A DNA stretch of 33,912 nucleotides from Parachlamydiales bacterium (GCA_020051075.1 JAGVJP010000106.1:1-33912), one strand, 5' to 3'. Positions 1 through 33,912 are shown, numbered from the stretch's first letter. The notes: generated by a model not told the origin, from the sequence alone. Translations and numbers: made by a program.

Positions 1-335
1 CCCCAAGGAATTAGGGAAACAGCTGCTTCCCTAATGCCATCTGGGTAGCTGTCGGCAAATTGGCGCATGAATTTCAAATTTCTATGCGAAAATGCAGTGA
101 TATTCGGGAATGAAGAGGCCAGATCTTTTGCAATCCTTTCAATTGTCTTCGATCCCCAAGATTCCGACAGGGCTTTTTCAGACAGCATTTTGCCGATCCT
201 CCAATAGAGCTCTATGAGTTCTTTATTAATGGATATGGCCGCGCGCAGCTGCGAGTCTTGAATGTCTTTTTTGATGTGTTCTATAAACTTGTCGTAACTA
301 TGCGGATCAACGATTTCATTTTTCTTTGCGTTCAT
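1..335 (-). CDS. DUF1016/YhcG-family protein (PD-(D/E)XK nuclease family), 5' part only; runs off the window
   Basis: Own translation from the ATG at 335: MNAKKNEIVDPHSYDKFIEHIKKDIQDSQLRAAISINKELIELYWRIGKMLSEKALSESWGSKTIERIAKDLASSFPNITAFSHRNLKFMRQFADSYPDGIREAAVSLIPW(G). Carries the DUF1016 N-terminal signature (A..S.N.EL..LYW.IG, WG, FS.RNL..MRQF, IPWG). Starts 9 bp after the integrase stop. Confidence 0.9.
   Translation of the reverse strand, partial: MNAKKNEIVDPHSYDKFIEHIKKDIQDSQLRAAISINKELIELYWRIGKMLSEKALSESWGSKTIERIAKDLASSFPNITAFSHRNLKFMRQFADSYPDGIREAAVSLIPW
10..35. repeat. 26-bp near-perfect palindrome inside the DUF1016 CDS (copy 1)
   Basis: ATTAGGGAA-ACAGCTGC-TTCCCTAAT: 9-bp perfect arms and one mismatched pair flanking CAGCTG. 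Encodes IREAAVSLI (codons 101-109). Confidence 0.95.
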
Positions 336-344
336 TAAAAACCC

Positions 345-1328
345 CTAAGATATTAAATTTACTTTTTTGCTCGCGTTATCTGCGCGCGAAGACTTGTCAT
401 AAGCGAAAACCATCTCCGATGTAGAATGTCCGGTTACACGCATGATATCACTGTCTTGAAATCCTTGCTGTTTAAGGTATGTGACAGCGGAAGCCCTTAG
501 TACGTGAGGAGATACCTTAAATGGAATACCTGCAGCTTTCCCAGCTTTTGCAAATGTGACGGCCAGCTGATTGATCATGACGGCTTTGCCCGATCTGGTC
601 ACAAACACACTGCCTGTTCTTTCCCCGATGTATTCCCTAAGTTTCTTCATAATTGTCTCTGGATATGTGATGACCGTTTCTTTCAGAAGCCTTCTCATTT
701 TCGACTGAAAAAATGTAATTTCACAGCGCTCCCAATCGATTTGGCTAGTTTGCAAGGATAGAACCTCGTTAACCCTTTTTCCTCCTTGCAGGATGATTTT
801 CCCAATCAAGCAGTCTCGAGGGTTAATTTTCTCTAATTCCTTGAAGAAAGAAATCCACTGCGCCTGAGTCATTGCATGGGTTTTAACCTTCTCGTATACG
901 TTGAAGAAGGTTTTTGCATGGCCTTCTTTATTCGGGATGGCCTTTTTTATGACTCCTTCAAGACGACGGCTCAAAAATCCGGTAAATGAAATATAACAGG
1001 CTGCACGAGCTTGGCGAGTGGTCTCAGCCCAATCCTGAAAAAGCTTGATGCGGTCGATGACGCTTTCATGATTAATCAGAGCAAACTGCTGCAAACTCAT
1101 GAGGGGATTAAGCCATCCGAACTCAACCAACTTCTTGATGCCGGATCTATAGCTAAGCTGAGTTTTAGGGCTCAAAGTCGGCAGCCAATAGGAAATTGCC
1201 TCTTCTACAGAAATCTCATCCAATTTCTTCCATACCAAGTTAGCTTTGAAAGACGCTGCTTGTTCATACGTTTCCAAATGAGAGGGGATAGGAATCTCCA
1301 AAACAGCCGGCATTAAAGTCATTGCCAT
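345..1328 (-). CDS. Tyrosine recombinase/integrase, chlamydial plasmid pGP8-D-like
   Basis: W.E.TRQARAACYISFT.FL, RD.LIGK.I.QG and P.VLRAS match my recollection of pGP8-D. Catalytic residues present: R (GKRVNEV), HxxR (SPHVLR), H (TGH), Y (FAY). True start may be the ATG at 1322, which forms an ATGA overlap with the upstream ORF. Confidence 0.92.
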   Translation of the reverse strand: MAMTLMPAVLEIPIPSHLETYEQAASFKANLVWKKLDEISVEEAISYWLPTLSPKTQLSYRSGIKKLVEFGWLNPLMSLQQFALINHESVIDRIKLFQDWAETTRQARAACYISFTGFLSRRLEGVIKKAIPNKEGHAKTFFNVYEKVKTHAMTQAQWISFFKELEKINPRDCLIGKIILQGGKRVNEVLSLQTSQIDWERCEITFFQSKMRRLLKETVITYPETIMKKLREYIGERTGSVFVTRSGKAVMINQLAVTFAKAGKAAGIPFKVSPHVLRASAVTYLKQQGFQDSDIMRVTGHSTSEMVFAYDKSSRADNASKKVNLIS

Positions 1329-1504
1329 TTCTTCCCTTCACAAAGACCCTCAAATAGTTTTTTATGTTCCTCTCTGCACATCACTTCTTGGATCGGAGAA
1401 CTTGTCTCGGTCTTAATGATTGCAAGATCAATTTTTTTCGCAGGCTTTCTTGATTCCGGTATTTTTTCTTGAGACTTTGGGTCTTTGGGTTCCTGTTTGC
1501 TCAC
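1319..1504 (-). CDS. Small charged hypothetical protein (about 61 aa) coupled to the integrase
   Basis: GTG at 1504 is preceded by GAGG; the stop overlaps the integrase ATG (ATGA). The longer ORF-track start at 1579 has no obvious RBS. Confidence 0.55.
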   Translation of the reverse strand: MSKQEPKDPKSQEKIPESRKPAKKIDLAIIKTETSSPIQEVMCREEHKKLFEGLCEGKKWQ

Positions 1505-1626
1505 ATACACCTCGACTTGTTTATAAGCGGCTTTATAAACAATGAAATGTAGCTCAAAAAGTCTTTCGTGGCAACACAAAGTTTTGACGATCTCGTGTCA
1601 TTTACACTAAGGCGTTGTAGCCACTA

Positions 1627-1698
1627 TAAATACTACGACATCTTGAATACAAGACAACTAAACGCCTATTGACACAAGGCATGCCTATCGTTTATACC
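1627..1698 (+). promoter_or_regulatory. Sigma70/sigma66-type promoter next to degenerate 8-bp tandem repeats
   Basis: TTGACA at 1669-1674 and TATACC 18 bp downstream. Upstream 8-mers TAAATACT/ACGACATC/TTGAATAC/AAGACAAC/TAAACGCC span 1627-1666. Confidence 0.45.
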
Positions 1699-1733
1699 TC
1701 TTATCAATAAACCAGCAAAAGGCTTGGGTAAAT

Positions 1734-1979
1734 ATGAACGAACAAGATCAAACGTTAATACAGCAAGACGTCAAAGATATTGGCAGTCAAATAGCCAAAA
1801 CAATTCAAAACAGGAACAAAAAAAAGTTCAAAGCCACAATCTATTTGACTGAAGAGGCGGAGAAGGCATTTACGGAGCTTTATATTCATCGCCTCAGAAA
1901 GGACAGGAAGATCGATCGTTCGATGATCGCCTGCGATGCTCTTCAGGCTCTTTATGAAAAAGAATGCAAAATTAATTGA
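1734..1979 (+). CDS. Small ribbon-helix-helix DNA-binding protein (ParG/CopG-like)
   Basis: KKFKATIYLTEE beta-strand pattern followed by two helices ending RSMIACDALQALY; promoter upstream. Confidence 0.65.
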   Translation: MNEQDQTLIQQDVKDIGSQIAKTIQNRNKKKFKATIYLTEEAEKAFTELYIHRLRKDRKIDRSMIACDALQALYEKECKIN

Positions 1980-2096
1980 GTAAATTTTATATAGAATCGG
2001 GGAACGGTGAATTTTTCTGCTATTTTATGCATCGACAAGGATAATAATCCTAGATATAGCGGACAAAAGCGAACGTCTCGTAAAAAAGAACAATTG

Positions 2097-3971
2097 TCAC
2101 GCAGACATAGGTAATTTGAAACGAATCAACCTTAATCCGTTCAAAATTACCAGTATAGCTACTCCTGAGTCAGCGCCTATTGCAAATTCAAGACCCGCCA
2201 ACCCAAAGACAGCTAAGGAAAGAAAGACAAACTTCACTCCCAAGGAGACCACAATGTTTTGCTTGATTACTTGGAGTGTCTTTTTTCCAAGGCTTATTGA
2301 ATAAGGGACATTCAGCAGATTATTACTCATCAGTGCAATGTCAGCCGTTTCAATAGCAATATCCGAACTCCCCGCTCCCATAGCGATCCCTACGTTCGCC
2401 GTAGCCAAAGCCGGAGCATCGTTGACTCCATCGCCTACCATGACGACAGATTTATATTTTTTCTTGAGTTCATCAATTTTTTCTACCTTTTCATGGGGAA
2501 GAAGAGATGCGAAAAATATTTGAACCCCTGTTTTATTAGCTATGTATTCAGCTGAATAACGGTTGTCTCCTGTAAGCATTACCGCTTCAACATTCATTCT
2601 ACGCAAAAGATTTACGGCTTCTTTCGCTTCATTTCTGATCGTATCAGCAATGCCAAGCGCTCCTATTATCTGATTCTCTTCTCGAATGATAACAACGGTC
2701 TTCCCATGTTTTTCTAATCCTTCAACAGTATTTAAAATTGCAGGGGGTATAGTAATCCCCATGAATTTAATATTCCCAATCGCATGTTCTGCTCCATTGC
2801 AGTTAATACAAATGGCCTTTCCACCCTTCCCTGAGACATTTTCATATTTTTCCATCACATGATGAGTGATTTTTTTTTCTTGGATATAATTTAAGATGCT
2901 TTTGGATAGTGGGTGAGAGGAAAATTTCTCAATGCCTGCTGCATCAGCAAGAACTTCTTCTTCTGTATGATTACCAAGTGCTATCACGTCTGTGACATAT
3001 GGCTCGCCTAACGTTAAAGTTCTTGTTTTATCAAATGCGACGATTTTCGCTTTTCCAATTTCCTCAAGATGGACCCCTCCTTTGATTAGAACCCCACGCT
3101 TGGCTGCTCCCCCAATTGCTGAAGCTATTGAAATAGGCGTGGAGATGACTAAGGCACAAGGGCAAGAAATGACTAAGAGAACCAGGGATTTGTACAGCCA
3201 CTCATTGAATATTCCTCCAAAAAACAAAGCGGGCACAGTAGCAAAAAAGAAAGCTGCAACTACAACAGTAGGAGTGTAATATTTTGCAAATTTATCGATA
3301 AATTCTTGAGTAGGAGCGCGCGAGCGCTGTGCTGCCTCAATGAGCTGGACGATTTTATTAAAAGTCGAATCTTTGTTTTCTTTCGTAACCTCGACTTCTA
3401 AAAACCCATTTTGATTGATTGTCCCAGAGAAAACTGTGTCGTTTTCATTTTTGTCCTTTGGGATGGATTCTCCTGTAATCATCGATTCATCAACTGATGA
3501 CATTCCTTTAATTACTTTCCCATCTAATGGAATCAGATCGCCTGGTTTAATCAAGATTATATCATTTTTTCTAACAGATTCAACCGGAACTATTTCCCCG
3601 TTTTTCAAAATAGCAGTTTTAGGAGCTCGTTTAATCAACGTTTCTACTGCTTTTTTAGACTTTTCTATCCCATAATTTTCAAAGAATTCAGCCAATGAAA
3701 AGAAGAAAACAACAGCCGCAGCCTCTCCTATCTGATTAATATACATAGCCCCTAAGGCTGCAATGACAACTAGGAAATTAATATTCAGAAATTTTTGTTT
3801 TACAACTCCAAGAAACGCAGAAATTAAAACGAAGTATCCTCCAGAAATTATTGAAATGTAATAAAAAACAGAAGATTCTTTACTATGCTCAAAAAATCCA
3901 AATGCAAATGCCAATAATACAGATATCCCAGAAACTAAAGTTAGAAATTTTTTCCAGAAATCAGATCTCAT
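2097..3971 (-). CDS. cadA: Heavy-metal P1B-type ATPase, Zn/Cd/Pb class (CadA/ZntA-like), no N-terminal metal-binding domain
   Basis: TGES, ISCPCALVISTP, DKTRT (variant), [23 protein letters not shown]-terminal K...D.G..ILVILNGLRL. Confidence 0.9.
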   Translation of the reverse strand: MRSDFWKKFLTLVSGISVLLAFAFGFFEHSKESSVFYYISIISGGYFVLISAFLGVVKQKFLNINFLVVIAALGAMYINQIGEAAAVVFFFSLAEFFENYGIEKSKKAVETLIKRAPKTAILKNGEIVPVESVRKNDIILIKPGDLIPLDGKVIKGMSSVDESMITGESIPKDKNENDTVFSGTINQNGFLEVEVTKENKDSTFNKIVQLIEAAQRSRAPTQEFIDKFAKYYTPTVVVAAFFFATVPALFFGGIFNEWLYKSLVLLVISCPCALVISTPISIASAIGGAAKRGVLIKGGVHLEEIGKAKIVAFDKTRTLTLGEPYVTDVIALGNHTEEEVLADAAGIEKFSSHPLSKSILNYIQEKKITHHVMEKYENVSGKGGKAICINCNGAEHAIGNIKFMGITIPPAILNTVEGLEKHGKTVVIIREENQIIGALGIADTIRNEAKEAVNLLRRMNVEAVMLTGDNRYSAEYIANKTGVQIFFASLLPHEKVEKIDELKKKYKSVVMVGDGVNDAPALATANVGIAMGAGSSDIAIETADIALMSNNLLNVPYSISLGKKTLQVIKQNIVVSLGVKFVFLSLAVFGLAGLEFAIGADSGVAILVILNGLRLIRFKLPMSA

Positions 3972-4002
3972 AGTTGCTCATTTTTTGAAATGTCTTATAG
4001 AC

Positions 4003-4074: not shown

Positions 4075-5424
4075 TCAGAGCGTCATAAGAGCATTTAAGT
4101 CATACGTTGCATCGGTGAGCATCAAGAAAGCACCGCTTAAAGCATCGACAATGTCATCGTGACCGCCTTCAGGGAAATTCTCTAATTCTCGGAGAAAATC
4201 TTCATTCCAAGATGCTTGTAGGATTTTGATATTTCCAGCTTCTGCCTGGGATGAAACGGGGAGGGCCCGCGTTACTTTGTCCTGAGTGGCTTTAAAGGTC
4301 TTCACATTATACCCTTGCAGCATTCTTACTAAATAGTCTGCCTCGCTTACCCCCGCCTGGCCAGGATCTTGTTCGATGCCGATCCTGGTCGAAATACCAT
4401 CCTGGCTTGCTGTATTTTTGATGGCGCTTTGAACCCCCAAAGGGCTCTGCTGAATCCTCACCATATCAGTGATGTATAAGATGTTATTTTTATCTTTTTC
4501 AAGACGCAACCCGACTGTATAATCTGGGTTGTTGCTTTCAGTCTTTTTCGTTGCAGCCCGATCCCAGTAGCGCACAGCCTTTAAGCCGCTTTTAGGAATG
4601 GCCTTAACAACTTCAAAGAAGTTTCTCTGGAAGAACATGCCCGCTGTGGGCCTGACGTTCCAGTTTCCCATGAGCAGCTGCTCCCGTTCAAAACGAGGCA
4701 GCGCTTTAAGATTGGCCAAGTATCCCGGATCTTTATCAAGCAGGATTTTATTGTCATGCACGGTTGATGCCACAAAGGAAACGCTCTTTGGGAGGCAATT
4801 TGGGTCTTTTTCTATCAATTCTTCAAGACTTGACCCCCAAATTGTCTGATCATTCTGAATGAAGAACCAGCGTGTTTTCCCGCTGCGCGAGGGGATCGGG
4901 TATCCGGATTTTTCATCAATCCACCAAGCGATGAATTGCCGGACCCAGGAGTCTGTATCCGGATTGGTGGTAGCTCTAATGTAAGGCTTCACTCCGCACG
5001 TGGATCTATTCCGCGAGAGCATATAGACGAATTGCTGCCACGAAAAATGAGTCAGCTCGTCAAAGCCGAGAAGAGGGATCTGAGATCCCTGCCAATCGAA
5101 GCGCGTCTTATCATGCTCAAGATGAGCGAATTTTACTTTGCCGTTGCCCTGGAAATCCCATTCAAGGGTTGATTCTTTAGGAGTGCCATTGGCGTGAACA
5201 AAAAGCTCGCAGCTTGTATCCCATAAGCCGCCTGGATTTCGTACCTGGGTGCTGTTTCTTCGGAATATCACGGCGGAGAAGCCTGGAACGTTTCTATGGC
5301 GCAGGCATTCCATTAAAAGGGCCCACGTTTTTCCGCCGCCGGCAGCGCCTCCGTAGATCACAATATCCGCAGAAGCATTCAAAAATTGGTATTGAGGGCC
5401 TTCCTGAGGCATGATTTTAGGCAT
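4075..5424 (-). CDS. terL: Phage terminase large subunit
   Basis: Walker A YGGAAGGGKT, Walker B LLGFDELTHF, ATTNP, RYWDRA, IEQDPG.AG, DKVTRA and C-terminal nuclease motif HDDIVDALS. Confidence 0.93.
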   Translation of the reverse strand: MPKIMPQEGPQYQFLNASADIVIYGGAAGGGKTWALLMECLRHRNVPGFSAVIFRRNSTQVRNPGGLWDTSCELFVHANGTPKESTLEWDFQGNGKVKFAHLEHDKTRFDWQGSQIPLLGFDELTHFSWQQFVYMLSRNRSTCGVKPYIRATTNPDTDSWVRQFIAWWIDEKSGYPIPSRSGKTRWFFIQNDQTIWGSSLEELIEKDPNCLPKSVSFVASTVHDNKILLDKDPGYLANLKALPRFEREQLLMGNWNVRPTAGMFFQRNFFEVVKAIPKSGLKAVRYWDRAATKKTESNNPDYTVGLRLEKDKNNILYITDMVRIQQSPLGVQSAIKNTASQDGISTRIGIEQDPGQAGVSEADYLVRMLQGYNVKTFKATQDKVTRALPVSSQAEAGNIKILQASWNEDFLRELENFPEGGHDDIVDALSGAFLMLTDATYDLNALMTL

Positions 5425-5893
5425 TTGGATCCTCCACTTTTTCTTCTATGCAATCGCCCCTTCCGTTATCCGGAATATAAATTTGGACAGGGTCTTCTCC
5501 TTTAACGATCGTTTCCGTGACAATGGTTTCTCTTTGACCGAGCCATATCTTGCCAAGCCAAATAGCCATGGTTGCATTGCGTTCGGCTTGCTGAAATTGG
5601 TAGCGCCGGAGGGAGAGTTTATGAAGTCCATTGCACCTTTTTCTTAACTCCGCAAAACCCATACCGAAAGCCTCCCTCAACCTTCGATCCAAAGTGTCAA
5701 CGCTGACCCTGAAAGCGCCCGCAATTTCTTCGGCGGTGGCTTGTAATTCCGTCCAATAGAGCACTTGATCGAGATTGATCTCCTTTTCCGGGACTACTCC
5801 TTTCCATTCAGAAGGAGGAGCTTTCGGATCGACAGGCGGCTTGACTGTTTTTTTAGGCCGGCCGTTCGGCCTTCCAGTAGGCTTCCTAGGCAT
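5417..5893 (-). CDS. terS: Probable phage terminase small subunit
   Basis: GRP..RPKK N-terminus, HTH-like EEIAGAFRVSVDTL, SLRR.QF..A..NATMAIWLGK.WLGQ. Overlaps both neighbours by 8 bp (ATGCCTAG / ATGCCTAA). Start taken at ATG 5893. Confidence 0.8.
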   Translation of the reverse strand: MPRKPTGRPNGRPKKTVKPPVDPKAPPSEWKGVVPEKEINLDQVLYWTELQATAEEIAGAFRVSVDTLDRRLREAFGMGFAELRKRCNGLHKLSLRRYQFQQAERNATMAIWLGKIWLGQRETIVTETIVKGEDPVQIYIPDNGRGDCIEEKVEDPNA

Positions 5894-7211
5894 GTTCTTC
5901 ACCATTCAACTTGATGTCGCATGGCTCGTTCCTCTGGAGCTTGTACTTCCTATAACGATCGACAATCACATCGCAATACTTTGGATCCAACTCGCATCCG
6001 AAGCATCTGCGGTTCAACTGCTCCGCTGCCATAAGAGTTGTGCCGGACCCCAGAAAGAAATCGAAGATGAGATCATCTTTCTTGGAGCTGTTATTAATGA
6101 GATAACCAATCAAAGGGATCGGCTTCATTGTCGGATGTTCGGCGTTCCTTTGGGGCCTGTCGAATTTCAGAAGAGTGGTTTGCTTCCGGTTGTTATACCA
6201 GCGATGTTTTTCTCCTTCCTTCCATCCGTAAAGCACAGGATCGTGATCGCTATACTCTTTCCCTCCGAATAGAACCGGCTCATGCTGCCATTGATAGTCC
6301 TGCCGTCCAAGAACCAGGGAATTCTTGAGCCAAATAAGGCATTGCGTCATTTTTAAGTTTGCTTCGCGGAAAAACCGGCGGAATCTTTCTCCTTCGGAGT
6401 CGGCGTGGAATACATAGATGCCCGCTCCTTCTTTCATGAAGACGAAAGCATTCACATAGAAATCACGTAAGAGGGATTCAAATTCTTCATTCGAAAGATC
6501 GTCATTTTTGATGGTAAGCTTCTCTTTCGTCCCGCCTTTATAAGCCACATTATAAGGGGGATCTGTGATGACTAGGTCTATTAATTCAGAGCCAAGGACT
6601 TTCTCAATGTCGTTATAAATTGTGGCGGATCCACAAATCAGCCGGTGCCTGCCCAAATCATAAATATCGCCCGGCTTGGTCTTCGGCTCTTCAGGCAATT
6701 CTTCTTCATAACCGTCATCAACCGCTTCAATTTTTTCAGGATCCTTCACCTGCAGCTCGTCTTCTGTAAATCCCCAATTGAACAGATCCTTTACCTCCCA
6801 TTCATTGGCTAACCGCTCCCAATCCCATTCTCCTGAATTCTTATTGCTGCGGATGAGATATTCTTCAGCCTCCCGTGTAGTAAGCTGACGGTTTGGAACT
6901 CGGACTTCGATTTCTTCTTTTCCCCGCCCAAGGGCCTTCATGGCTTTGATCCTCATGTGGCCGGCCAAGATCGTATTATCCAGATTGATAACGATGGTCT
7001 CCACATAGTTAAAGCTCTTTAATGACTGCTTTAGCTTCTCCATCTGATCTTTTGTGATCTTGCGTGGGTTTTTCTCATGTTCTTTAAAGTCTTTGATCCG
7101 CCTGATTTCGGTGTGCCACACCAACTCCTCTAAAGTGATTTCGGCTTCTTGCGCCGGGACCTCGATTTCATCTGTCTGGATCTCTGCATCCTTGGTTTTC
7201 CTCTTTGCCAT
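5886..7211 (-). CDS. Phage-type DNA methyltransferase (N6A/N4C, beta class) with ParB-like N-terminal domain
   Basis: ParB-like NPR.I...ILAGH.R; LGRHRLICG; catalytic TDPPYN precedes SAM-binding DFFLGSGTT; HPTMKP; ELDPKYCDVIV. Confidence 0.92.
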   Translation of the reverse strand: MAKRKTKDAEIQTDEIEVPAQEAEITLEELVWHTEIRRIKDFKEHEKNPRKITKDQMEKLKQSLKSFNYVETIVINLDNTILAGHMRIKAMKALGRGKEEIEVRVPNRQLTTREAEEYLIRSNKNSGEWDWERLANEWEVKDLFNWGFTEDELQVKDPEKIEAVDDGYEEELPEEPKTKPGDIYDLGRHRLICGSATIYNDIEKVLGSELIDLVITDPPYNVAYKGGTKEKLTIKNDDLSNEEFESLLRDFYVNAFVFMKEGAGIYVFHADSEGERFRRFFREANLKMTQCLIWLKNSLVLGRQDYQWQHEPVLFGGKEYSDHDPVLYGWKEGEKHRWYNNRKQTTLLKFDRPQRNAEHPTMKPIPLIGYLINNSSKKDDLIFDFFLGSGTTLMAAEQLNRRCFGCELDPKYCDVIVDRYRKYKLQRNEPCDIKLNGEEHA

Positions 7212-7379: not shown

Positions 7380-7721
7380 TTAAACTTTGCTGACAATTTC
7401 AATGGTGACCGGATATAAATCCTCAACCATCTTTCGCTTTGCCTGGCTTAAAGCGGTATCTTTTCCTTTGGTGTCGACGAAACTTATTTCGCCATTCGCA
7501 TAAAAAACCTGAAAGTCACAAACATAGCGCACTTTTCCCGGAAGATCGAACGGTATCTGCCTAAGAAAAAAAACAACTTCCCCGGCTTTTTGAAGAATTT
7601 GGAGCTTATCGTAATACCTTCGCTCCAATTTTGAGGGAAACTTTTTACCGTCCCTCTCGCAGGGAATCGCACCGAATTTATGCTTTGGCTTCGCCCTAGA
7701 GTTAAAAAATTTAATATTCAT
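7380..7721 (-). CDS. DUF1064-like phage PD-(D/E)XK nuclease
   Basis: K.KF.A......DG.KF.SK.E..YY..L, RQ.PF, Y..DF.V, FVD.KG. Confidence 0.8.
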   Translation of the reverse strand: MNIKFFNSRAKPKHKFGAIPCERDGKKFPSKLERRYYDKLQILQKAGEVVFFLRQIPFDLPGKVRYVCDFQVFYANGEISFVDTKGKDTALSQAKRKMVEDLYPVTIEIVSKV

Positions 7722-7887: not shown

Positions 7888-7915
7888 AAATAGGGAAGCA
7901 GCTGTTTCCCTGTTT
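7888..7915. repeat. Non-coding second copy of the DUF1016 palindrome (copy 2), inverted relative to copy 1
   Basis: 7891-7911 TAGGGAAGCAGCTGTTTCCCT is the exact reverse complement of 13-33. Arms extend to AAATAGGGAA...TTCCCTGTTT. Confidence 0.93.
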
Positions 7916-8268: not shown

Positions 8269-8514
8269 CAAATGTTTTTCGATCACTTCATTTATTCCAA
8301 GATGTAGATATTCGATGCCTCAAACGTTATCTTCAGTGCAGCCGATGAAGCCTTGAAGAGACTGCCGATATTTTGCTTCTCATTCCCATTAAAATTCCCA
8401 ACCAGTTTTTGTCAGGCCTTTCTACTGTTTTGTATTGCAAAGGTAAAGTGCATATGTTAACAGTAAACGCTTAGGGTCTCGCTTTGCGCATGCCAAAAAG
8501 AACGGAGTGTTTTG

Positions 8515-11564: not shown

Positions 11565-11565
11565 A

Positions 11566-16492: not shown

Positions 16493-16505
16493 TAATACCT
16501 GCCAT

Positions 16506-24492: not shown

Positions 24493-27182
24493 GCTTGCCT
24501 TTTCTGAAATATTCGATTAATCACATATCCACCCATCCCTACACCGAAAGCCACAATGGCAATAACGCCCCATTCTTTTAACCCTAATCCAACTGTTCCG
24601 AAGATTTTTTGTAAGGGAGGGAGATAAATGACGAGCAGCTGAACAAATAGCGAACTTGCTAGAGCTCCAATAATCCATCGATTAGAAAAAAATCCGATGT
24701 GGTATTGAGAGCGCACCATCTGAACTCGAACAAGCTCTAATACGACCAGAGTCGTAAAAGCCATTGTTTGTCCTAAAGCTGCACTGGTACGCAATCCAAA
24801 ATGGCAAGCGACAAGCGTACCTACAGCAATGGTACTACTGATTAACACCAGCTGTAGGGAAAACCGAAATGACAAAATGGGTTCGCTTGACTTTCTGGGT
24901 AGCCTTTCCATCGCTTTTGGATCAACGGGGTCCATCCCTAAAGCAATGGCTGGAAAGCCATCTGTCACAAGATTTAAGAACAACAATTGAACGGCAGATA
25001 AAGAAACGAAAGGATTTCCAGCTGGGTCTTTAAACCCAATGGCCATTCCTGCAAAAATGACCATAAGTTCAGCGATATTCGAGGAAAGCAGATAATTAAC
25101 GAATTTAATGATATTATCATAAATGCCCCTTCCTTCTTCCACCGCATTGACAATAGAAGCAAAATTGTCATCAGTGATAATCATATCGGCGGCTTCTTTA
25201 GTGACATCTGTTCCCTTGATTCCCATGGCTATCCCAATGTTCGCCTCTTTAATCGCAGGAGCATCATTGACGCCATCACCTGTCACTGCGACAATCTCCC
25301 CTAAATTTCGCCACATCCTCACAATACGTAATTTATGTTCTGCTGAGACGCGAGCATAAATACTAATAGTTCGGAGGGCTTTTTTAAGTTCCTCATCGCT
25401 CATTTGTTGAAGCTCTATTCCAGTAATTGCAAGCTTTCCTTCCGTCATTAACCCCAATTCTCTTGCTATAGCCTCCGCTGTATCTTTATGGTCGCCTGTG
25501 ATCATCACTGGAAGGATGCCTGCTTTCATGCAAGTTTGAACCGCTTGCTTAACTTCGGTTCTCGGAGGATCCATCATGGCTACAAGGCCAACAAAAGTGA
25601 GATTATTTTCCATGGATTCATCTATGTTCTGGCCAGACTCTATGTCCCTATAAGCCATAGCTAAAACTCTCAAGGCCCCAGCTGCAAAATCATGGTTGGC
25701 ATTAAGAATTTCTTGTTTGAGAAGAGGCGTAAGAGGTGTCTGCCTATTCTCAAGAAGAACTGTTTGACAACGGTTTAGAATTAAATCAGGTGCTCCCTTA
25801 ACAAAAAGAACATTTCCAGTAGAGGTCTGCCTAAGAACACTCATCCGTTTGCGCTCTGAATCAAAAGGAATTTCCCCAAGAAGAAGATTCACAGTCTCAA
25901 GTTCTTTCTTTTTTATTCCTCCTTTTTCTGCGGCAACGATCAAAGCACCTTCTGTAGGATCTCCGGTAATTTGCCAGCCTTGTTCCGTATGTGTGAGATT
26001 GGCGCTATTACACAATATTCCCGTCTCAAGAAGACGCTTTAATTCAGGGAAGTCTGTAAGAGAAATGATTTGCGATTTTAATGCGAAATCTCCTATAGGC
26101 GTATACCCCACACCAGACACATCAATCTGTGCTTGATTGGCCCATATCTTCCTCACACTCATCTCATTCTTCGTTAGAGTCCCTGTCTTGTCAGTACAGA
26201 TCACAGAGGCACATCCTAGTGTTTCAACTGAGGGAAGATGGCGAATAAGAGCTTTACGCTTTGCCATTTTCCGAACACCAATAGCAAGCGCGATGGTTAC
26301 AATAGCAGGTAGTCCTTCAGGCACAGCAGCAACTGCAAGGCTTGTTGCTATTAAAAGGATGTTAAGAAAAGAATTTCCTTGTAAAATTCCAAGGATAAAA
26401 ACAATCGCAACAATTCCAAGGCAAAGAAAAACCAACCGACGTCCTAATCCGGCTAAGCGAATTTGCAAAGGAGTTTGTTCTTCTTTGTGCTCACTTAACA
26501 GGGAAGCGATCTTTCCAAGTTCTGTATTTAATCCTGTCGTTGTCACTATCATATGTCCTTTACCGCTAAGGACAACTGTTCCCATAAAGGCCATGTTTTT
26601 TCGATCGCCAATGGGTAATTCGCTCTTCGCAAGCGGATCAATCATTTTATGAATAGGCAAAGATTCCCCTGTAAGAGACGCTTCTTGAGTGGAGAGCTGA
26701 ACAGATTGAATGACTCTACCATCTGCTGGAATCAGATCGCCCGCTTCTAATAAGATAAGATCACCGGGGACAATTTCTCTTGAGAGAACTGTCTGTAGAA
26801 CTCCATCGCGGATCACTTTACACGTTGGAGTTGCTAGCTTTTTTAGTGCTGCAAGAGACCGTTCTGCATTGATTTCTTGGATGAATCCTATGATTGCATT
26901 CAGAATAACAATCACAAGAATCGCTATTGCATCTATCCATTCACCAAGAATCCCAGCAATGACAGCTGCGGCAATTAAGACCCATACGATGAAACTGGAA
27001 AATTGATTTAGAAAAAGTTTAAATGGGGAAGGGGGTTTGGGTTCTGGTAACTCATTGAAACCATAACTTTCTAATCGTATCTTTATAGCAGCAGGGGACA
27101 ATCCTTGTTTTGGATCGGTATCTAGTTCCTTGTAGGTTTGTTCTGTGGAAAAACTCCACCACGGCTTCTTCTCTGCTGGCAT
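24489..27182 (-). CDS. P2A-type cation (Ca2+-like) transporting ATPase
   Basis: [57 protein letters not shown]. Confidence 0.95.
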
Positions 27183-27294: not shown

Positions 27295-29682
27295 ATGCCA
27301 AGAGAATTTCAAGATCCTTATGCTGAGGATCCTTTAACCAAGATGGAGCTAAATAAACTTAATGCTTACTGGCGAGCAGCTAATTATCTTTCTGTGGGTC
27401 AAATATACCTGCTAAACAATCCTCTACTCAGAGAACCCCTAAAACTTGAACACATCAAACCTCGGTTGTTAGGGCATTGGGGGACAACACCAGGCGTAAA
27501 TTTTATTTACGCTCACATGAATCGGGTCATCAAAAATTTTGATCTTAACGTTCTCTTTATGTTAGGGCCTGGGCATGGAGCGCCTGGACTCATTGCTAAC
27601 ACGTATCTTGAAGGAACATATAGTGAATTCTACCCTCATATCACTCAAGATATCAAAGGCATGCAACGATTATTTAAACAGTTTTCCTTTCCAGGAGGTA
27701 TCCCTAGCCATGCTGCGCCAGAAACACCTGGGTCCATTCATGAAGGAGGGGAGTTGGGCTATGTGATCAGTCACTCCTACGGGGCTGTTCTAGATAACCC
27801 AAATCTTATCACTTGTTGTGTTGTAGGAGATGGAGAAGCAGAAACCGGCCCTCTTGCATGTAGTTGGCACTCTAATAAATTTTTAAATCCTGTCAATGAT
27901 GGAGCTGTGCTGCCTATCTTGCATTTAAATGGGTACAAAATAGCTAATCCCACATACCTTTCGCGAATCAGTCGCCAGGAATTGAATAATCTCTTTGTCG
28001 GATACGGATATAAACCCTATTTTGTAGAAGGATCGGAACCTGAGACAATGCATCAGTTGATGGCTAAAACGCTTGATATAGTCATCAATGAAATCCTAGA
28101 AATCCAAAAAAAGGCCCGTCAAAAAGAGGGTTCTGAACGTCCAGAGTGGCCAATGATTATCCTAAGAACCCCAAAAGGATGGACAGGACCTAAAGAAGTG
28201 GACGGGGAAAAAACAGAAAATAGTTGGCGATCCCACCAAGTCCCTTTAGGGGATTTTAAAACTAAACCCCAACACTTACAACTCCTTGAAATATGGCTAA
28301 AGAGCTATCGACCTGAAGAATTATTTGATGAAAATGGAAAATTGAAGTCTGAACTTCAAGATATGGCGCCGAAGGGAAATAGGCGCATGGGTGCAAATCC
28401 TCATGCAAATGGAGGAGCACTGCTTCAAGAATTAAAATGCCCTGATCTACGAGATTATGCTGCTAAAATTGAATCTCCTGGAAAAGTGGTTGCCGAATCG
28501 GCGAGAATTCTTGGTGGATATCTAAGAGATGTCATGAAGCTCAATCTGGAAAGCAAAAATTTTCGAGTTTTTGGACCCGATGAGACAGCTTCAAATCGAC
28601 TAGGCGCTTTATTTGAAGTCACAAATCGAACTTTTAACGCCACAATCCTCCCTTCAGATGATCATCTTTCCCCTGATGGACGTGTCATGGAAGTACTCAG
28701 CGAACATCTTTGTCAAGGGTGGCTAGAAGGGTATCTTTTGACAGGTAGGCATGGTTTTTTCTCTTGTTATGAAGCCTTTATTCATATTATCGATTCGATG
28801 TTTAATCAACATGCAAAGTGGCTCAAAGTATCGCGGCAGATTAGCTGGAGAAAACCGATTGCCTCCCTTAATTATTTCCTAACTTCTCATGTCTGGAGGC
28901 AAGACCATAATGGCTTTTCTCACCAGGATCCTGGCTTTATTGACATTGTTGTAAACAAAAAAGCTGAAGTCATTCGAGTTTATTACCCACCCGATGCCAA
29001 CACATTGTTATCCGTAGCAGATCACTGTCTTAAATCACGCAATTATGTGAATGTGATCATCGCAGGCAAACAGCCTGCTTTGCAATACCTGAACATGGAG
29101 GAAGCGGTCAACCACTGCACAAAAGGGATAGGGATTTGGGATTGGGCGAGCAACGATAAAGGACAAGCTCCTGATGTCGTCATGGCCTGTGCAGGGGATA
29201 TTCCCACATTAGAGACACTTGCAGCGGTGGATATTTTAAGGAATATGCTTCCATCACTTAAAATCCGCGTTGTCAATGTTGTTGATCTCATGGTACTACA
29301 ACCTAAAAACGAACACCCTCATGGGCTTTCAGATGCAGAATTTGATGCTTTCTTCACAACGGATAAACCCATTATTTTCGCACATCATGGCTATCCCTGG
29401 ATCATTCATCGACTTACCTATCGTCGCACAAACCATAAAAATCTTCATGTCCGAGGATATAAAGAAGAGGGAACGACGACGACCCCCTTTGACATGGCAG
29501 TACTAAATGACCTAGATCGGTTTAATCTTGCAAAAGATACTATCGATCGCATCCCCATAGCTTCCGAAATAAAAGCCAACATTAAAGATGCTCTAAATAA
29601 AAAACTTGCCTACCACAAAGAATATATTCGAGAATACGGAGAAGATATTCCCGAGGTGATCAACTGGAAATGGCCATATTGA
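27295..29682 (+). CDS. xfp: Xylulose-5-phosphate/fructose-6-phosphate phosphoketolase
   Basis: [58 protein letters not shown]. Confidence 0.96.
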
Positions 29683-30897
29683 ATGAAAAAACAACTGATC
29701 CAGGTCATCAACATTGGAAGTTCATCATTAAAGATCTCTCTCTTTTGTATTTATAAGAAAAGAGTTGAGCGCATTTTGGACGCACATTGCAGAAATATCC
29801 ACGATTCCAATCCGCAAATCGAGATTGTTACCCAAGCAAAGAAAACCTGCATTAAACATCTTAAGGAAGGACAAATTGATAAAATTTTTCTACAGCTCAT
29901 GGAAGAAATCGAGAAGTTCATCGATTTTCATCTTTTTGCTATTATCGGAATAGGACATCGGTTCATTCATGGAGGCGATAAGTATACAACCAGTATGGTC
30001 ATCAACTCTTCTTCTCTTAAAGAGCTAGAAAAACTCAAAGATTTAGCCCCTCTTCACAACCCTGATTGTCTTAAACTCATCAAAGCAAGCCAAAAGTATT
30101 TCCATTCTAAAATGCTACAAATTGCCGTATTCGATACTGCCTTTCACAGCACTCTTCCTTCCTATGCATCACAATATGCGATTCCTCACTCCCTAGCTTC
30201 CAAGTATCACATCAAACGTTATGGGTTCCATGGCATTTCACATGCTTATCTCACCGATAAATATTTTGAATACACAAAAAAGAAAAAAAGACCTTCCAAA
30301 CTTATTACCTTACATCTTGGGAATGGATGCTCTGCTACCGCTATCCTAGACGGCTTATCCATCGATACTTCTATGGGATTCAGTCCTGCAGAGGGACTCG
30401 TGATGGGCACGAGAGCTGGCGATATAGATTTTACCTTGATTGAATTCCTTTGTAAGCAACAGCATCAATCTGTACGCCAAATCACCCATATGCTCAATTT
30501 CGAATCTGGTTTAAAAGGGATTTCGGGAAAAACCTCAAATGTAAAGGAACTTCTTCAGAGCTATGAAAAAGACCCGAATTGCCGACTTGCCATAGATATG
30601 TTTTGCTATCGAATCATCAAATATATAGGGTCCTTCACTACTATCCTCAATGGTGTAAATGCGATTATTTTCAGTGGGGGCATTGGAGAAAACTCTCCTC
30701 TCATAAGGCAGATGATTTGTTCAAAACTCAAATGGTTAGGATTAAAAATCTCAGTCAAAAGAAACAACTCCATTGTAAATTCTAGTCCTGGCAGCGTTCA
30801 AAAAATCAACACTCCCTCTTCTTCTGTCGAACTGTACGTCATTTCAACAGATGAAAATCTTTTTATTGCACAAGAAGTGCTAAAAAATCTCAATTAA
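29683..30897 (+). CDS. ackA: Acetate kinase
   Basis: N.GSSSLK, GHR..HGG, LAPLHN, VFDTAFH, YGFHG.SH, HLGNG.S, MGTR.GD, F.GGIGEN, TDE; abuts xfp. Confidence 0.94.
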   Translation: MKKQLIQVINIGSSSLKISLFCIYKKRVERILDAHCRNIHDSNPQIEIVTQAKKTCIKHLKEGQIDKIFLQLMEEIEKFIDFHLFAIIGIGHRFIHGGDKYTTSMVINSSSLKELEKLKDLAPLHNPDCLKLIKASQKYFHSKMLQIAVFDTAFHSTLPSYASQYAIPHSLASKYHIKRYGFHGISHAYLTDKYFEYTKKKKRPSKLITLHLGNGCSATAILDGLSIDTSMGFSPAEGLVMGTRAGDIDFTLIEFLCKQQHQSVRQITHMLNFESGLKGISGKTSNVKELLQSYEKDPNCRLAIDMFCYRIIKYIGSFTTILNGVNAIIFSGGIGENSPLIRQMICSKLKWLGLKISVKRNNSIVNSSPGSVQKINTPSSSVELYVISTDENLFIAQEVLKNLN

Positions 30898-30980
30898 GAG
30901 CTAAATCCTTTAGCTTGCAATTTTTAATTTGGACAATTAATACGAAGGTTAGGGGAATCATTTTGTGGGACGGGTAACTA

Positions 30981-32360
30981 TTGTTTAATTTTCTGCAGCC
31001 AGCTCCTATTGTAGAAGAAATCCAAGATCCTGTACTTGTTAAAAAAAAGTACAAGTACTGGCGATTGCGTACATTTTATGGGATGTATATCGGGTATGCC
31101 TTCTATTACTTTTCCCGCAAAAGCTTCACTTTTGCCATCCCTTCGATGCTCGAGGAAGGGTTTAGCCTCTCGGAACTTGGGATGTTGGGAACCATTCTTT
31201 CCATTACATATGGTGTTAGCAAATTTGTCAGTGGAGTTATGGGGGATAAATCAAATCCCCGTTATTTTATGTCCTTCGGATTGATTTTAACCGGTATTTT
31301 CAATATCGGTTTTGGCTTCACAACAGCTTGGGTCATGCTTGCTGTCCTTTGGGCATTGAATGCCTGGTTTCAAGGGTGGGGCTGGCCCGGCTGCGCAAAA
31401 TTGCTCACTCATTGGTATTCCCAATCTGAGAGAGGGAGATGGTGGAGTGTATGGAATACATCGCATAATTTGGGTGGAGCCCTCATCCCACTCGTCATCG
31501 CTTTTTGCGCTCATCATTATGGCTGGCGTTGCGCTATGTTTGTACCGGGCATCCTCTGTATTATAGCTGGTTTATTCTTGATGAACCGCCTTCGAGATGT
31601 GCCTCAATCGCTTGGATTACCTCCAGTTGAAAAATTCAAAAATGAAGAACAGCCATCGACATCCGGGAAAAATAAAAAGCTTACTTTATCAACGAAGGAA
31701 ATTCTTTTTGACCATGTGCTGTGTAATAAGTACATCTGGGTCATGGCCTTTGCTTACTTTTTCATTTACATCATTCGCATTGGTTTCAATGACTGGAGCA
31801 TGGTCTATTTCGTCAATAAGGGCTACTCTAAAATAAAAGCAGCAAGCTTTGTCTTTTGGTTTGAAATCGGTGGTTTTTTAGGCAGCCTTTTTGCTGGATG
31901 GTGCTCAGACAAAATTTTTAGCGGTAAACGCAACCCAGTCAACATTCTCTTCACCGTTGGAGCCATTGGCGCGCTCCTTGCCATGCATTGGAATGGAGTT
32001 GGCTGGTTATTTTTGGATACTATTATCATCTTTTTAATCGGCTTTTTCATCTTTGGCCCGCAGATGTTGATCGGTATGGTTGCAGCGGAACTTCCTGATA
32101 AAAAAGCTGCAGCGACTGCCAGCGGCTTTGCGGGTTGCTTTGCTTATCTTGGCGCAGCTGTAGCTGGAGGCCCCCTCGGTGCTCTTACGGATCTTTGGGG
32201 CTGGAATGGCTTTTTTGTTGTCTTGATTAGTTGCGGGTTAGTTTCTCTTGCATTAATGATTCCACTTTGGTCAATAACGACAAGGGCCAAACCTGCTGTT
32301 CAACAAATATCTCCTTCGACAGAGATCAACCAAAAAATGACAGTCGAAGAAGCTGAGTGA
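30981..32360 (+). CDS. uhpC: MFS hexose-phosphate transporter, chlamydial UhpC-like
   Basis: I.DP..VKK.YKYWR.R.FY, RKSFTFA.P, SNPRYFM, NAWFQG.GWP, ERG.WW..W..SHN.GGA, FGPQMLIG; TTG start. Confidence 0.93.
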   Translation: MFNFLQPAPIVEEIQDPVLVKKKYKYWRLRTFYGMYIGYAFYYFSRKSFTFAIPSMLEEGFSLSELGMLGTILSITYGVSKFVSGVMGDKSNPRYFMSFGLILTGIFNIGFGFTTAWVMLAVLWALNAWFQGWGWPGCAKLLTHWYSQSERGRWWSVWNTSHNLGGALIPLVIAFCAHHYGWRCAMFVPGILCIIAGLFLMNRLRDVPQSLGLPPVEKFKNEEQPSTSGKNKKLTLSTKEILFDHVLCNKYIWVMAFAYFFIYIIRIGFNDWSMVYFVNKGYSKIKAASFVFWFEIGGFLGSLFAGWCSDKIFSGKRNPVNILFTVGAIGALLAMHWNGVGWLFLDTIIIFLIGFFIFGPQMLIGMVAAELPDKKAAATASGFAGCFAYLGAAVAGGPLGALTDLWGWNGFFVVLISCGLVSLALMIPLWSITTRAKPAVQQISPSTEINQKMTVEEAE

Positions 32361-32370
32361 CTTTGTCGGC

Positions 32371-32613
32371 TTATTTACTGTCTTCTTCGGGGTATACTTC
32401 AGGGATATAATGGGCGAAGTTTTTTGCCTCTTTATCGCAGATAAAGACAGAGGTGACTGCCGATGAACTTCCTGTCTCTACCTTGTCATTCTCGTAGCAT
32501 GCTCCTCTCCATGCATTTTCTATGGCAATTTCTTCAGTAGGAGCCTCAACTTCTACCATGAAATATTGCGTGAAGGAGAGCCCTACGCGCCATTTTGGAA
32601 ATTTTTTATTCAC
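32371..32613 (-). CDS. Small hypothetical protein, phage/mobile-element type
   Basis: V......Y..VEVEA.TEE.A pattern typical of small mobile-element proteins; co-oriented with the phage-like genes upstream. Confidence 0.55.
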   Translation of the reverse strand: MNKKFPKWRVGLSFTQYFMVEVEAPTEEIAIENAWRGACYENDKVETGSSSAVTSVFICDKEAKNFAHYIPEVYPEEDSK

Positions 32614-32632
32614 GAATCACATCCCTGTTGCC

Positions 32633-33337
32633 TTATGTTACACTGATATTTCCCTGCGAAATTCCCGTACAAGTCCAATCGGTGTTGGCCGCTGTGCAGA
32701 GGAGCTGAATCGCATCATATTGATTGGTCGAATCTAAAGAACCACCAATGCCTGTGGTCGTATCTTGATTGCCAAAGTGGATGGTCTGGCCTACATTTTG
32801 GGCGATTTGCCATCCACCTACGCCCTTTCCAACGATCCAAACGAGATCACCGACCGATGAAGTAGCGGGGAGAGTAGCGATAACGAGGGCAGGGTTATTG
32901 AGGATGTACCCGTTGTTGACTGCCATGGTCAGGGCAGTGCCTGTCATCTCGGTGAAAGAAAAGAAAGAAGCTTGCGGGGTCCACTTAACCCCCTCTGGAG
33001 TCGTGGAATCGGTAGTAAGCACCTGGTTGTCTGGTCCGGCTGGCAATCGTGTATTGGCAGTAACCGTTCTGATCAGAAGATCTCCTTTAGTAGTAAGAGG
33101 GGAGATATTCCCAAAAGCGATCACAGCATTGGCTACATCAGAAAGATTGTTAGCGACTGCGAGCAAATCAGTGACCTTCTTTCCTGAATCTTGGATGACC
33201 TTTCCTGTATTATCGGCATAAGTTGCAATATCATCCTGAACAGAAGAATTGGGGCCGATGACATTGCCCGTGCCACCGCCGCCAGTCCCCGATTTATCCA
33301 GGTTGTTCGTGAATGGGTTATATCCGTAAATACTCAT
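32633..33337 (-). CDS. Phage virion protein, short tail-fibre-like
   Basis: G/T/N-rich. Modules YNPFT.NLD, G.V.GP.SS..D.IA.....TGK.IQ.S, LAVANNLSDV, LTTKGDL....TRLP.G...QVLT.DS, then a C-terminal NNGYI.N......TLP....VGD...I.G.G.GGW.IAQN domain. Confidence 0.7.
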   Translation of the reverse strand: MSIYGYNPFTNNLDKSGTGGGGTGNVIGPNSSVQDDIATYADNTGKVIQDSGKKVTDLLAVANNLSDVANAVIAFGNISPLTTKGDLLIRTVTANTRLPAGPDNQVLTTDSTTPEGVKWTPQASFFSFTEMTGTALTMAVNNGYILNNPALVIATLPATSSVGDLVWIVGKGVGGWQIAQNVGQTIHFGNQDTTTGIGGSLDSTNQYDAIQLLCTAANTDWTCTGISQGNISVT

Positions 33338-33345
33338 GATTTCCC

Positions 33346-33621
33346 CTATGAAAAATAAGTCGCGCGGTTGGTCCAGCTATAAATGAAGCCAGCTCCCGCA
33401 TCGGGTATCTGGACTCGATTGATAAAGTTATTGCTGTCGTAACTAAGTTTGCGGATAAACCACGTTGAATTATCGACGTTTTCATTCGGAATGGCGGAAA
33501 ACCCTACATAAAGCGGCCTTCCTGCGCTGTCATTATCGAGCCTCTGCTCATAGAAATCGTTTGTTCCTAGAGTAGAAGCTAGATTATTGATCTGGTCAAA
33601 AACGTTGGTTGGAATAGGCAT
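33346..33621 (-). CDS. Small phage structural-type hypothetical protein
   Basis: YVG.......STW.IRK..Y......W.NRATY pattern seen in tailed-phage virion gene clusters; AAGGAG RBS. Confidence 0.7.
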   Translation of the reverse strand: MPIPTNVFDQINNLASTLGTNDFYEQRLDNDSAGRPLYVGFSAIPNENVDNSTWFIRKLSYDSNNFINRVQIPDAGAGFIYSWTNRATYFS

Positions 33622-33912
33622 GAATCACTCCTTTGACCAAAGTCTAAGGCTATTTGACGCCTGTCCAACAGAGAGGGGGGTTCAAACCAAATTACTGGTC
33701 TTCTCGATATTGCGACCTGGTGGTACAGCTATCGCTTTTTCGGGCAGCACCATCCTCCTCTTCTTCTTGATGAGATGGAGGAGGCAGGGCGAGAGCCTGA
33801 ACAAATTCAGGTATCGCAATCCCTTCGAGTGATTCCTCGTGTCTAACATTCGGCATGGCACGGCCTTGCGCAATGGTTGCATTTTTAAAATATGATGTTA
33901 GCTTGATCTAGA

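Follow-up and report, generated by a model that had tools for sequence, protein, structure and literature searches.

We analysed a stretch of 33,912 nucleotides from a Parachlamydiales bacterium, referred to here as the window. It is the entire contig C84 (33,912 bp) of the metagenome-assembled genome (MAG) G000, and it is for this reason that the window comes without flanks; the MAG comprises 2.94 Mb in 133 contigs, with a completeness of 99.92 and a contamination of 5.7. The left end of the window carries an integrase of the chlamydial plasmid type and a tailed-phage packaging operon, the right end carries a triad of conserved small genes, and the 24.1 kb in between (∼8.3–32.4 kb) are occupied by genes for metal handling and carbon metabolism (Table 1). 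A first-pass annotation, made from the sequence, had proposed ∼24 kb of metal and carbon cargo between phage-type ends. Our Pfam and NCBIfam scans bore out this extent, and profile scans located all the genes it had named at the ends to which it had assigned them. As described below, the window is probably a contig-length fragment of a family of megaplasmids of the Criblamydia sequanensis type, whose members are phage-plasmids by gene content.

Packaging operon, integrase and right-end triad

The large terminase subunit (TerL) encoded in the window is intact and of the T4 type. Among 72,556 plasmids, that of C. sequanensis was the sole record with a TerL of >60% identity, and the nearest TerL proteins of GenBank phages, found in Rhizobium phages and Methanoculleus viruses, were 53–54% identical. 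The open reading frame (ORF) overlapping the start of terL encodes a putative small subunit (TerS) of 162 amino acids (aa), which is conserved at 85–94% identity in relatives and at 31% in the tailed-phage relative L046. Its fold model was of low confidence (pLDDT 57.3), and comparison of this fold with a viral library gave 0 matches at E ≤ 0.001, with two of the top seven entries named TerS. The operon also encodes a ParB-like domain fused to a DNA methyltransferase and, as its first gene, a DUF1064 protein whose matching family, phrog_190, is named a Holliday-junction resolvase. Of the terL, terS, methyltransferase and DUF1064 genes proposed in the first-pass annotation, three were identified by strong family matches, but TerS only by a weak one. 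The packaging genes have a G+C content of 46–49%, compared to 37–42% for the neighbouring genes.

A second, diverged packaging module is present in the same MAG on contig C95, which starts inside terL. It shares 84.9% nucleotide identity with the window copy over 3.5 kb, and the two TerL proteins are 97% identical over 345 aa; the homology stops at window position 7920, at the conserved palindrome described below. Comparison of the two copies gave dN/dS values of 0.009 for TerL, 0.036 for TerS, 0.033 for the methylase and 0.049 for DUF1064, with dS > 1. As judged from these substitution rates, the two modules are two old lineages, both maintained by selection. Next to its packaging genes, C95 (1–14442) carries an AbiEi/AbiEii pair, CusCBA and a P2 ATPase, in the order seen on the C. 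sequanensis plasmid.

The tyrosine recombinase at the left end had been called a pGP8-like integrase, and this held in our analysis. In tblastn comparisons it was 91.4% identical to the integrase of the C. sequanensis plasmid, 58% identical to those of Waddlia and Simkania plasmids, and 49–51% identical to those of Chlamydia plasmids, one of which is annotated as ‘pGP8-D’. Matches on plasmids spanned 94–100% of its length, and 112 of the 159 matching plasmid records were from Chlamydia. By tblastn identity the integrase thus falls in the chlamydial plasmid group, and not outside the Chlamydiota. An integrase of this pGP7/8 type occurs in a single copy in the G000 MAG.

The DUF1016 gene predicted beside the integrase was recovered as a fragment, cut by the contig end, that shares 82% identity with the complete 362-aa gene of G361 (DUF1016_N and YhcG_C) and 80% with the IMG/VR locus L045; in both of these the gene likewise follows the integrase. 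On the other side of the integrase lies a conserved 86-aa ORF with no family match in Pfam, PHROG or NCBIfam, and beyond it a gene for an 81-aa protein that is 68% identical to its plasmid counterpart. The C-terminal 46 aa of this protein match the neighbour of ParA on the C. sequanensis plasmid (41%, E 1.6e-5). It had no Pfam or other family match, and a CopG cluster appeared no higher than rank 12 in the Atlas search. This is probably the ribbon-helix-helix gene of the first-pass annotation, and its product is a possible DNA binder of that class.

The triad at the right end is 84%, 83% and 96% identical to the genes at 42.7–44.0 kb of the C. sequanensis plasmid, where the ORFs encode 81, 234 and 91 aa, and it is also found in G179 (82, 234 and 91 aa) and in locus L049. 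The C-terminal half of the 234-aa protein was well folded in the structural model (pLDDT >90). Its best fold matches in the PDB were the N-terminal region of tailspike-4 of phage CBA120 (E 7.8e-6), baseplate chains of Klebsiella phage KP1, and gp9/gp10 of T4, suggesting that the protein is tail-fibre-like or baseplate-adaptor-like. This agrees with the earlier proposal of virion-like genes at the right end, on the same strand as the packaging genes. A paralogue lies within the tail-fibre region of the plasmid, and public metagenomes contain 65 cluster representatives at ≥70% identity.

A scan of metagenomes with a 30-nt word from the right end of the window returned one contig, L049 from JGI, of which 20 kb were analysed. 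We rejected it as an extension of the window element, as it is a relative with other cargo and 84% identity over the triad. The cargo beside its triad consists of four GNAT acetyltransferases, a PadR regulator and a 613-aa DUF7380/DUF4209 protein, and a 72-aa phrog_2423-like gene directly adjoins the triad.

Table 1. Features of the 33,912-nt window, with coordinates, strand and supporting matches.
Feature	Position	Strand	Basis or remark
DUF1016/YhcG-type PD-(D/E)XK nuclease, N-terminal 111-aa fragment	3..335	-	Pfam DUF1016_N 1.4e-23; cut by contig end
Palindrome, copy 1	12..33	.	inside DUF1016 frame, 312 nt downstream of integrase stop
Tyrosine recombinase, chlamydial plasmid pGP7/8 type	345..1328	-	PF00589 1.6e-19
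Conserved 86-aa ORF overlapping integrase start	1319..1579	-	78% identity to ORF at equivalent position of the C. sequanensis plasmid
81-aa protein, possible ribbon-helix-helix DNA binder	1734..1979	+	C-terminal match to ParA neighbour; CopG cluster at rank 12
Zn/Cd/Pb-type P1B ATPase	2097..3971	-	TIGR01525 2.6e-174, ZntA-like models
TerL, intact	4075..5424	-	Terminase_6N and 6C; phrog_979 E 6.6e-164
Putative TerS, 162 aa	5417..5905	-	overlaps terL start; phrog_309 E 0.006
ParB-like domain fused to N6/N4 DNA methyltransferase	5886..7211	-	PF01555 1.4e-30; phrog_498 6.8e-138; ParB-like PHROGs
DUF1064 protein, first gene of packaging operon	7380..7721	-	PF06356 9.9e-13; phrog_190 8.6e-26
Palindrome, copy 2	7891..7912	.	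170 nt upstream of DUF1064, at edge of large cargo bay
72-aa protein of phage family	8050..8268	+	phrog_2423 1.1e-17
Copper-handling set: TolC-type channel, multicopper oxidase, DUF2231 membrane protein, ferric-reductase-like flavoprotein	8512..13502	+	Pfam, NCBIfam
CopA-type Cu(I) P1B ATPase and DUF2933 protein	14052..16525	-	TIGR01511 3.2e-177; HMBD; DUF2933 1.5e-12
Two tandem paralogous small proteins, 134 and 148 aa	16506..17307	-	mutual identity 42-53% over matching parts
CusA, CusB and outer-membrane factor (heavy-metal RND efflux pump)	17249..22814	-	TIGR00914 1102.8 bits; HlyD_D23 1.7e-81; OEP 1.6e-42
Alpha-glucan phosphorylase and Ca-type P2 ATPase	22798..27182	-	TIGR02094 4.2e-164; TIGR01522 6.7e-224
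Phosphoketolase, acetate kinase, UhpC-type sugar-phosphate transporter	27295..32360	+	XFP domains, NF003619 1473.1 bits; TIGR00016 5.4e-116; NF008661 5.9e-158
Backbone triad, ORFs of 80, 234 and 91 aa	32371..33621	-	conserved in relatives

Relatives of the window and the palindrome at their bay edges

Plasmid 1 of C. sequanensis CRIB-18 (NZ_LK031773.1) is a circular molecule of 89,524 bp. Nearly every window gene maps to genes of this plasmid (tblastx, tblastn), with the left module, the types of cargo and the right end being collinear, and window positions 346–7844 show 81.9% nucleotide identity to it. The plasmid run resembles that of the window in containing the integrase, two small ORFs, TerL, a 138-aa ORF, the methylase, DUF1064, metal-efflux cargo and the triad, and a palindromic site likewise stands between DUF1064 and the cargo. 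Protein identities were 91% for the integrase, 93% for TerL, 95% for the putative TerS, 92% for the methylase, 88% for DUF1064 and 83–96% for the triad. The types of cargo are also shared (CusCBA, CopA, multicopper oxidase, P2 ATPase, phosphoketolase, glucan phosphorylase and acetate kinase), but the cargo genes are just 47–75% identical and differently arranged. Unlike the plasmid, the window contains a ferric-reductase-like gene, UhpC and the DUF1016 gene, does not contain the ars operon, and has a ZntA-type ATPase in the slot where the plasmid has AbiE.

In addition, the plasmid encodes ParA and a DnaG–DnaB primase-helicase (RefSeq annotation, Pfam). The virion genes identified from these two sources include a portal (PF06381), Mu-F, DUF2213, cement, major capsid protein (MCP, PF09950), collar, tail terminator and DUF3383 sheath, along with a tail set of tube, chaperone (TAC), tape measure, Dit-like, plug gp18, hub gp41, spike, wedge and glycine-rich fibre proteins. 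Contig C4 of G101 (70,193 bp) is considered circular because of a terminal overlap of 55 nt, and carries the whole backbone at 95–100% aa identity to the Criblamydia plasmid. The least interrupted order is seen in G179, where the 98-kb contig C3 carries the methylase, TerS, TerL, a small ORF, the integrase, a gene for an ATPase with a helix-turn-helix (HTH) domain, the structural genes from the portal to the tail fibres, ParA and the primase-helicase, with the triad farther along the contig. In the plasmid, G101 and G179, therefore, ParA, the primase-helicase, the integrase, the terminase operon and a full myovirus set of the E217/Pam3 type are found on one molecule. The structural genes of the relatives match the cement, collar gp28, hub gp41 and plug gp18 families of the myoviruses Pseudomonas phage E217 and cyanophage Pam3. 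These two, however, are ordinary phages that have no plasmid genes, and none of their matched structural genes is present on the window.

The ATPase-HTH gene, of ∼476 aa, lies on the opposite strand between the integrase and the portal (L031:14837–16267 in G179) and encodes an ATPase_2/AAA domain, an ArsR-type HTH and DUF234. It was also seen in G111, G101 and L043.

We then examined the spread of these elements in 401 sampled Chlamydiota genomes, 26 of which had TerL matches (E ≤ 1e-20). Full-length TerL at 87–96% identity was found in 13 genomes besides G000, representing the families f1, f6, f9, f16 and f30 of a single order, while G148, G118, G400 and G317 contained TerL fragments with in-frame stops. 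The portal family was present in 10 of the 13 genomes with full-length TerL, being truncated in one (G111), and was not detected in G202, G364, G212 or G000. Four genomes were compared with G000 for RpoB, TerL and methylase, respectively: G179 (75.3%, 94.9% and 94.9%), G101 (84.3%, 95.8% and 92.5%), G111 (78.3%, 87.5% and 86.9%) and G361 (89.4%, 94.4% and 92.3%). TerL identity exceeded RpoB identity in all four, which implies horizontal spread, and since TerL and the methylase are both more alike than RpoB, the element is younger in its hosts than the divergence of these hosts. In G000 itself, the rpoB match (C46:7489–11215) is in two pieces (model positions 3–370 and 368–1237) with one in-frame TGA, and may reflect a frameshift or an error in MAG assembly.

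In IMG/VR contigs with 70% TerL identity, TerL is followed directly by the portal, MuF, MCP and tail terminator, which is the usual phage order. Because these relatives keep the phage order, the chlamydial lineage looks like a tailed phage that gained a plasmid-type recombinase between terminase and portal. In the eight genomes with both genes on one contig, TerL and the portal are separated by 3.7–19.2 kb, which constitutes one variable bay. A second variable bay is located upstream of DUF1064, and it is this second bay that is filled by the 24 kb of the window. The ZntA-type ATPase is cargo in a small variable slot between TerL and the integrase, filled by an AbiEi/AbiEii pair in the C. sequanensis plasmid, G101 and G202. 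The bays of G361 (C27) and G179 (C3:1–50000) contain genes for LD-carboxypeptidase, beta-lactamase-fold proteins, GNATs, amine oxidase and O-methyltransferases, unlike the cargo of the window.

A 22-bp palindrome with the consensus TAGGGAAACAGCTGTTTCCCTA was present in all related elements examined, in each of them at a cargo-bay edge, where homology between elements is interrupted. The two copies in the window form an exact inverted repeat of 21 nt (13–33 and 7891–7911), for which 100 shuffles yielded no match at all. The remaining repeats of the window, direct or inverted, were short, imperfect and two-copy, and were treated as chance or as paralogy of ATPase genes. Like the window, C95, G101, G179, G361 and the plasmid have a copy of the palindrome 170 nt upstream of DUF1064. 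In G111, L043 and L044 the palindrome is placed between integrase and portal; that of G202 is ∼2.7 kb past the integrase with no structural genes near it, and in G361 a degenerate copy is found inside the DUF1016 gene just past the integrase. We infer that the palindrome is a candidate target of the recombinase.

Cargo genes

The copper-handling set at the left of the large bay shows 68–75% identity to plasmid genes. Its last member (12153–13502), which follows the multicopper oxidase and the DUF2231 protein, has Ferric_reduct, FAD_binding and NAD_binding domains and may work with the multicopper oxidase as its cupric or ferric reductase. The C. sequanensis plasmid has no equivalent of this gene. 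The two tandem paralogues of 134 and 148 aa, situated between cusA and the DUF2933–copA pair, have hydrophobic, signal-like N-termini and a common C-terminal motif. They had no family match in Pfam, PHROG or NCBIfam, and may be periplasmic metal-handling proteins. CusCBA is 47–73% identical to the CusCBA of the plasmid, and the glucan phosphorylase and P2 ATPase are 65–66% identical to the plasmid genes. Diverged second copies of the phosphoketolase, acetate kinase and UhpC group are located on contigs C75 and C22 of the MAG (41–51% identity), with the UhpC paralogue on C22 at 51%.

G101, L049 and the plasmid have counterparts of the 72-aa phrog_2423 gene from the edge of this bay, in the equivalent position. 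In a tblastx comparison of the plasmid with the MAG, the genes flanking the 72-aa ORF matched and the ORF itself did not, and tblastn of the plasmid counterpart protein against the MAG gave nothing at E ≤ 1e-3.

Nature of the element

Tailed-phage genes linked to chlamydial plasmids had been taken as new in the first-pass annotation. The link is real, but earlier papers make it less novel than assumed. Bertelli 2014 (PMC4208316) described the C. sequanensis plasmid with its efflux systems and ars operon, and reported 7% of its proteins as ‘of phagic origin’. In the parts of the article by Koestlbacher 2021, Curr Biol (PMC7846284) drawn on here, a ‘phage group’ of chlamydial plasmid gene families is defined, which comprises a phage terminase and other families derived from phages; P. 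massiliensis and C. sequanensis carry these on their plasmids together with pgp7/8 and parA/pgp5. There, the phage set is called a putative prophage, its transfer between Parachlamydiaceae and Criblamydiaceae is inferred, and pgp7/8 is placed among viral integrases. The same parts of the article text make no mention of a phage-plasmid lifestyle, cargo bays or the palindrome, nor of a complete myovirus module or an integrase between terminase and portal, although its supplements (Data S2C) may list more. Relevant passages of Bertelli 2016 (PMC5010888) link the 80-kb plasmid of R. massiliensis and the Protochlamydia plasmid to that of Criblamydia, and give Chlamydiamicrovirus as the only known chlamydial phages. 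Supplements aside, the term phage-plasmid was not applied to these elements in any paper found by our literature search, and no such paper described the virion module, the bays or the palindrome. The window is thus a new, cargo-rich member, in the form of a fragment, of a family that is partly described.

The first-pass annotation had offered three readings of the window, namely a phage-plasmid hybrid, a cargo-loaded prophage remnant, or a packaging-competent element of an environmental chlamydia. The hybrid is the best fit, given the collinearity with the plasmid and the full gene set carried by G101. We infer a phage-plasmid lifestyle from gene content, conservation and distribution. In such a lifestyle, the element would be a low-copy plasmid in its replication and partition, and its DNA would be packaged by TerS and TerL into particles with contractile tails. 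These particles would carry it, with its metal-efflux and carbon genes, between chlamydiae residing in one host cell. At the bay edges, the 22-bp palindrome would be the substrate of the tyrosine recombinase, by analogy with Cre-loxP of P1, and the enzyme might resolve multimers, circularise packaged DNA and exchange cargo.

P1 (Cre-loxP, ParAB) and the SSU5 group are phage-plasmids. Like the chlamydial elements, they are known to unite on one replicon the genes for virion and terminase, those for plasmid partition and replication, and a tyrosine recombinase that acts at a short palindrome. Unlike them, the chlamydial element has an obligate intracellular host and a far larger cargo (tens of kb) that splits the terminase–portal junction, and no lysogeny or lysis genes were identified in it. 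A more far-reaching proposal is that environmental chlamydiae from five or more families are infected, inside their eukaryotic hosts, by phage-plasmids with contractile tails that form one active lineage, and that the recombinase and the 22-bp palindrome load and swap tens of kb of metal-resistance and central-carbon genes. We put this forward tentatively, as a possibility that falls short of even chances.

Neither ParA/pGP5 nor the helicase is on the window, and the missing part of the element is most likely on unassembled or unbinned DNA. In the public run X1, a single contig of 83,926 nt reproduced window positions 3288–33912 with one difference and ran 53.3 kb past the right end. The last 564 nt of this contig match window 2092–2655 at 85%, a copy of the palindrome lies 640 nt before them, and small X1 contigs cover window 2685–3315. 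Taken together, these contigs fit a circle of ∼84.5 kb, which the long contig seems to close. Run X2 covered the whole window, including the integrase–ATPase junction, and runs X3, X4 and X6, from other studies, contained pieces of ≥99% identity across the window. The ends of contig C84 shared no 25- or 31-mers with other contigs of the MAG.

A number of observations count against the window being part of a phage-plasmid. Its two ends do not overlap by 15 nt or more. When the 36 plasmid genes that run from the fibre genes to the portal were compared with the MAG by tblastn, a single match reached E ≤ 1e-3, and this was a paralogue match to the 234-aa gene of the window; neither the primase-helicase nor the 548-aa protein nor the genes of the early region were found in the MAG at this threshold. 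ParA matches in the MAG were only distant (30–32%, on C69 and C56). Pfam searches of the MAG for portal and MCP were also negative, a result of little weight since control genomes were equally silent. Run X1 did not cover window positions 1–1880, the integrase included, so that its element differs around the integrase, and X1, possibly the source of the window DNA, is not fully independent. The palindrome could alternatively be an operator or an RNA hairpin (−19.7 kcal/mol, z −3.8). Finally, a remnant state is real in this family of elements, since G202 has only a chromosomal packaging module and integrase, and the portal of G111 is truncated; both are chromosomal remnants, on contigs of 1.92 Mb in G202 and 2.07 Mb (a single contig) in G111.

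The strongest alternative is a plasmid with a dead or domesticated prophage. The phage genes would then be a captured block that gives no infectious particles, or only tailocin- or gene transfer agent (GTA)-like ones, and the window would be cargo beside leftover packaging genes. The ‘phage group’ has been read as a ‘putative prophage’ in PMC7846284, the terminase and portal are separated in eight genomes, the head-tail module makes up ∼22 kb of the 89.5-kb C. sequanensis plasmid, and no lysis gene was identified in the plasmid annotations examined. However, more than 30 structural genes are intact and 46–100% identical across the plasmid, G101 and G179, and ParA, the primase-helicase and the integrase are contiguous with the phage modules. 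The packaging genes have dN/dS values of 0.01–0.05. Moreover, identity across families exceeds that of RpoB, so a means of transfer is needed, and the plasmids are typed as non-mobilizable. We therefore regard a dead prophage as unlikely. A GTA-like element as the principal explanation was rejected, as the complete relatives keep plasmid maintenance genes and the integrase within the element.

A decaying chromosomal remnant is less probable still. Here, one or two elements would have recombined into the chromosome and lost their structural and replication genes, leaving the packaging module, the integrase and the cargo. This would account for the failure to find structural or replication genes in a 99.9%-complete MAG and for its two packaging modules with one integrase, and it has parallels in the remnants of G111 and G202 and in the interrupted TerL fragments of the four genomes named above. 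In contrast, the genes of the window are all intact and under strong purifying selection, the near-identical 83.9-kb X1 contig extends 53 kb and appears to close, and strain-shared plasmids are often missed in assembly or binning. The closest carrier of the same family, G361, has its portal on a separate contig. No housekeeping or chromosomal gene was detected on C84 in the Pfam and NCBIfam scans, which also speaks against this alternative. We found no tRNA gene in the 33,912-nt window either, and with the inverted 21-nt palindrome as its only long repeat, the contig was not classed as an integrated prophage.

Least probable, to the point that we give it very little credence, is a phage satellite or hitch-hiking cassette, in which the integrase and the DUF1064–methyltransferase–TerS–TerL unit between the palindromes redirects packaging into the capsids of a phage-plasmid: the unit is flanked by the inverted palindromes (12–33 and 7891–7912), is under purifying selection and occurs with no detected portal in G000 (twice), G202, G364 and G212, but Pfam, PHROG and NCBIfam scans recognised no replication, helper-sensing, helper-interference or capsid-remodelling gene in it, its terminase is the sole terminase of the complete elements, of the four genomes with no detected portal G202 is assembled in 2 contigs and the other three are fragmented drafts, and the left palindrome lies inside a coding sequence and is degenerate in G361. 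A Chlamydiamicrovirus, with its small single-stranded DNA (ssDNA) genome that has no terminase, does not match an element with a T4-type TerL and relatives carrying a myovirus module.

To our knowledge, the characterised chlamydial phages are small ssDNA microviruses only, and environmental chlamydiae are almost devoid of genetic tools. To the family, the window contributes new cargo, a genome with two diverged copies of the packaging module, and a site at the bay edges; the virion gene set is not on the window itself. A plasmid family that encodes entire tailed virions and differs little from one chlamydial family to the next would explain how megaplasmids typed as non-mobilizable pass from one obligate intracellular bacterium to another, and how copper, zinc and silver efflux genes and those for phosphoketolase, acetate kinase and UhpC have spread in water and soil systems. 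If the active lineage proposed above is real, these elements would be the first tailed double-stranded DNA phages of the phylum and a principal path by which genes move between chlamydial families, and would provide a ready-made transduction vector, or natural delivery vehicle, for organisms that have no genetic tools.

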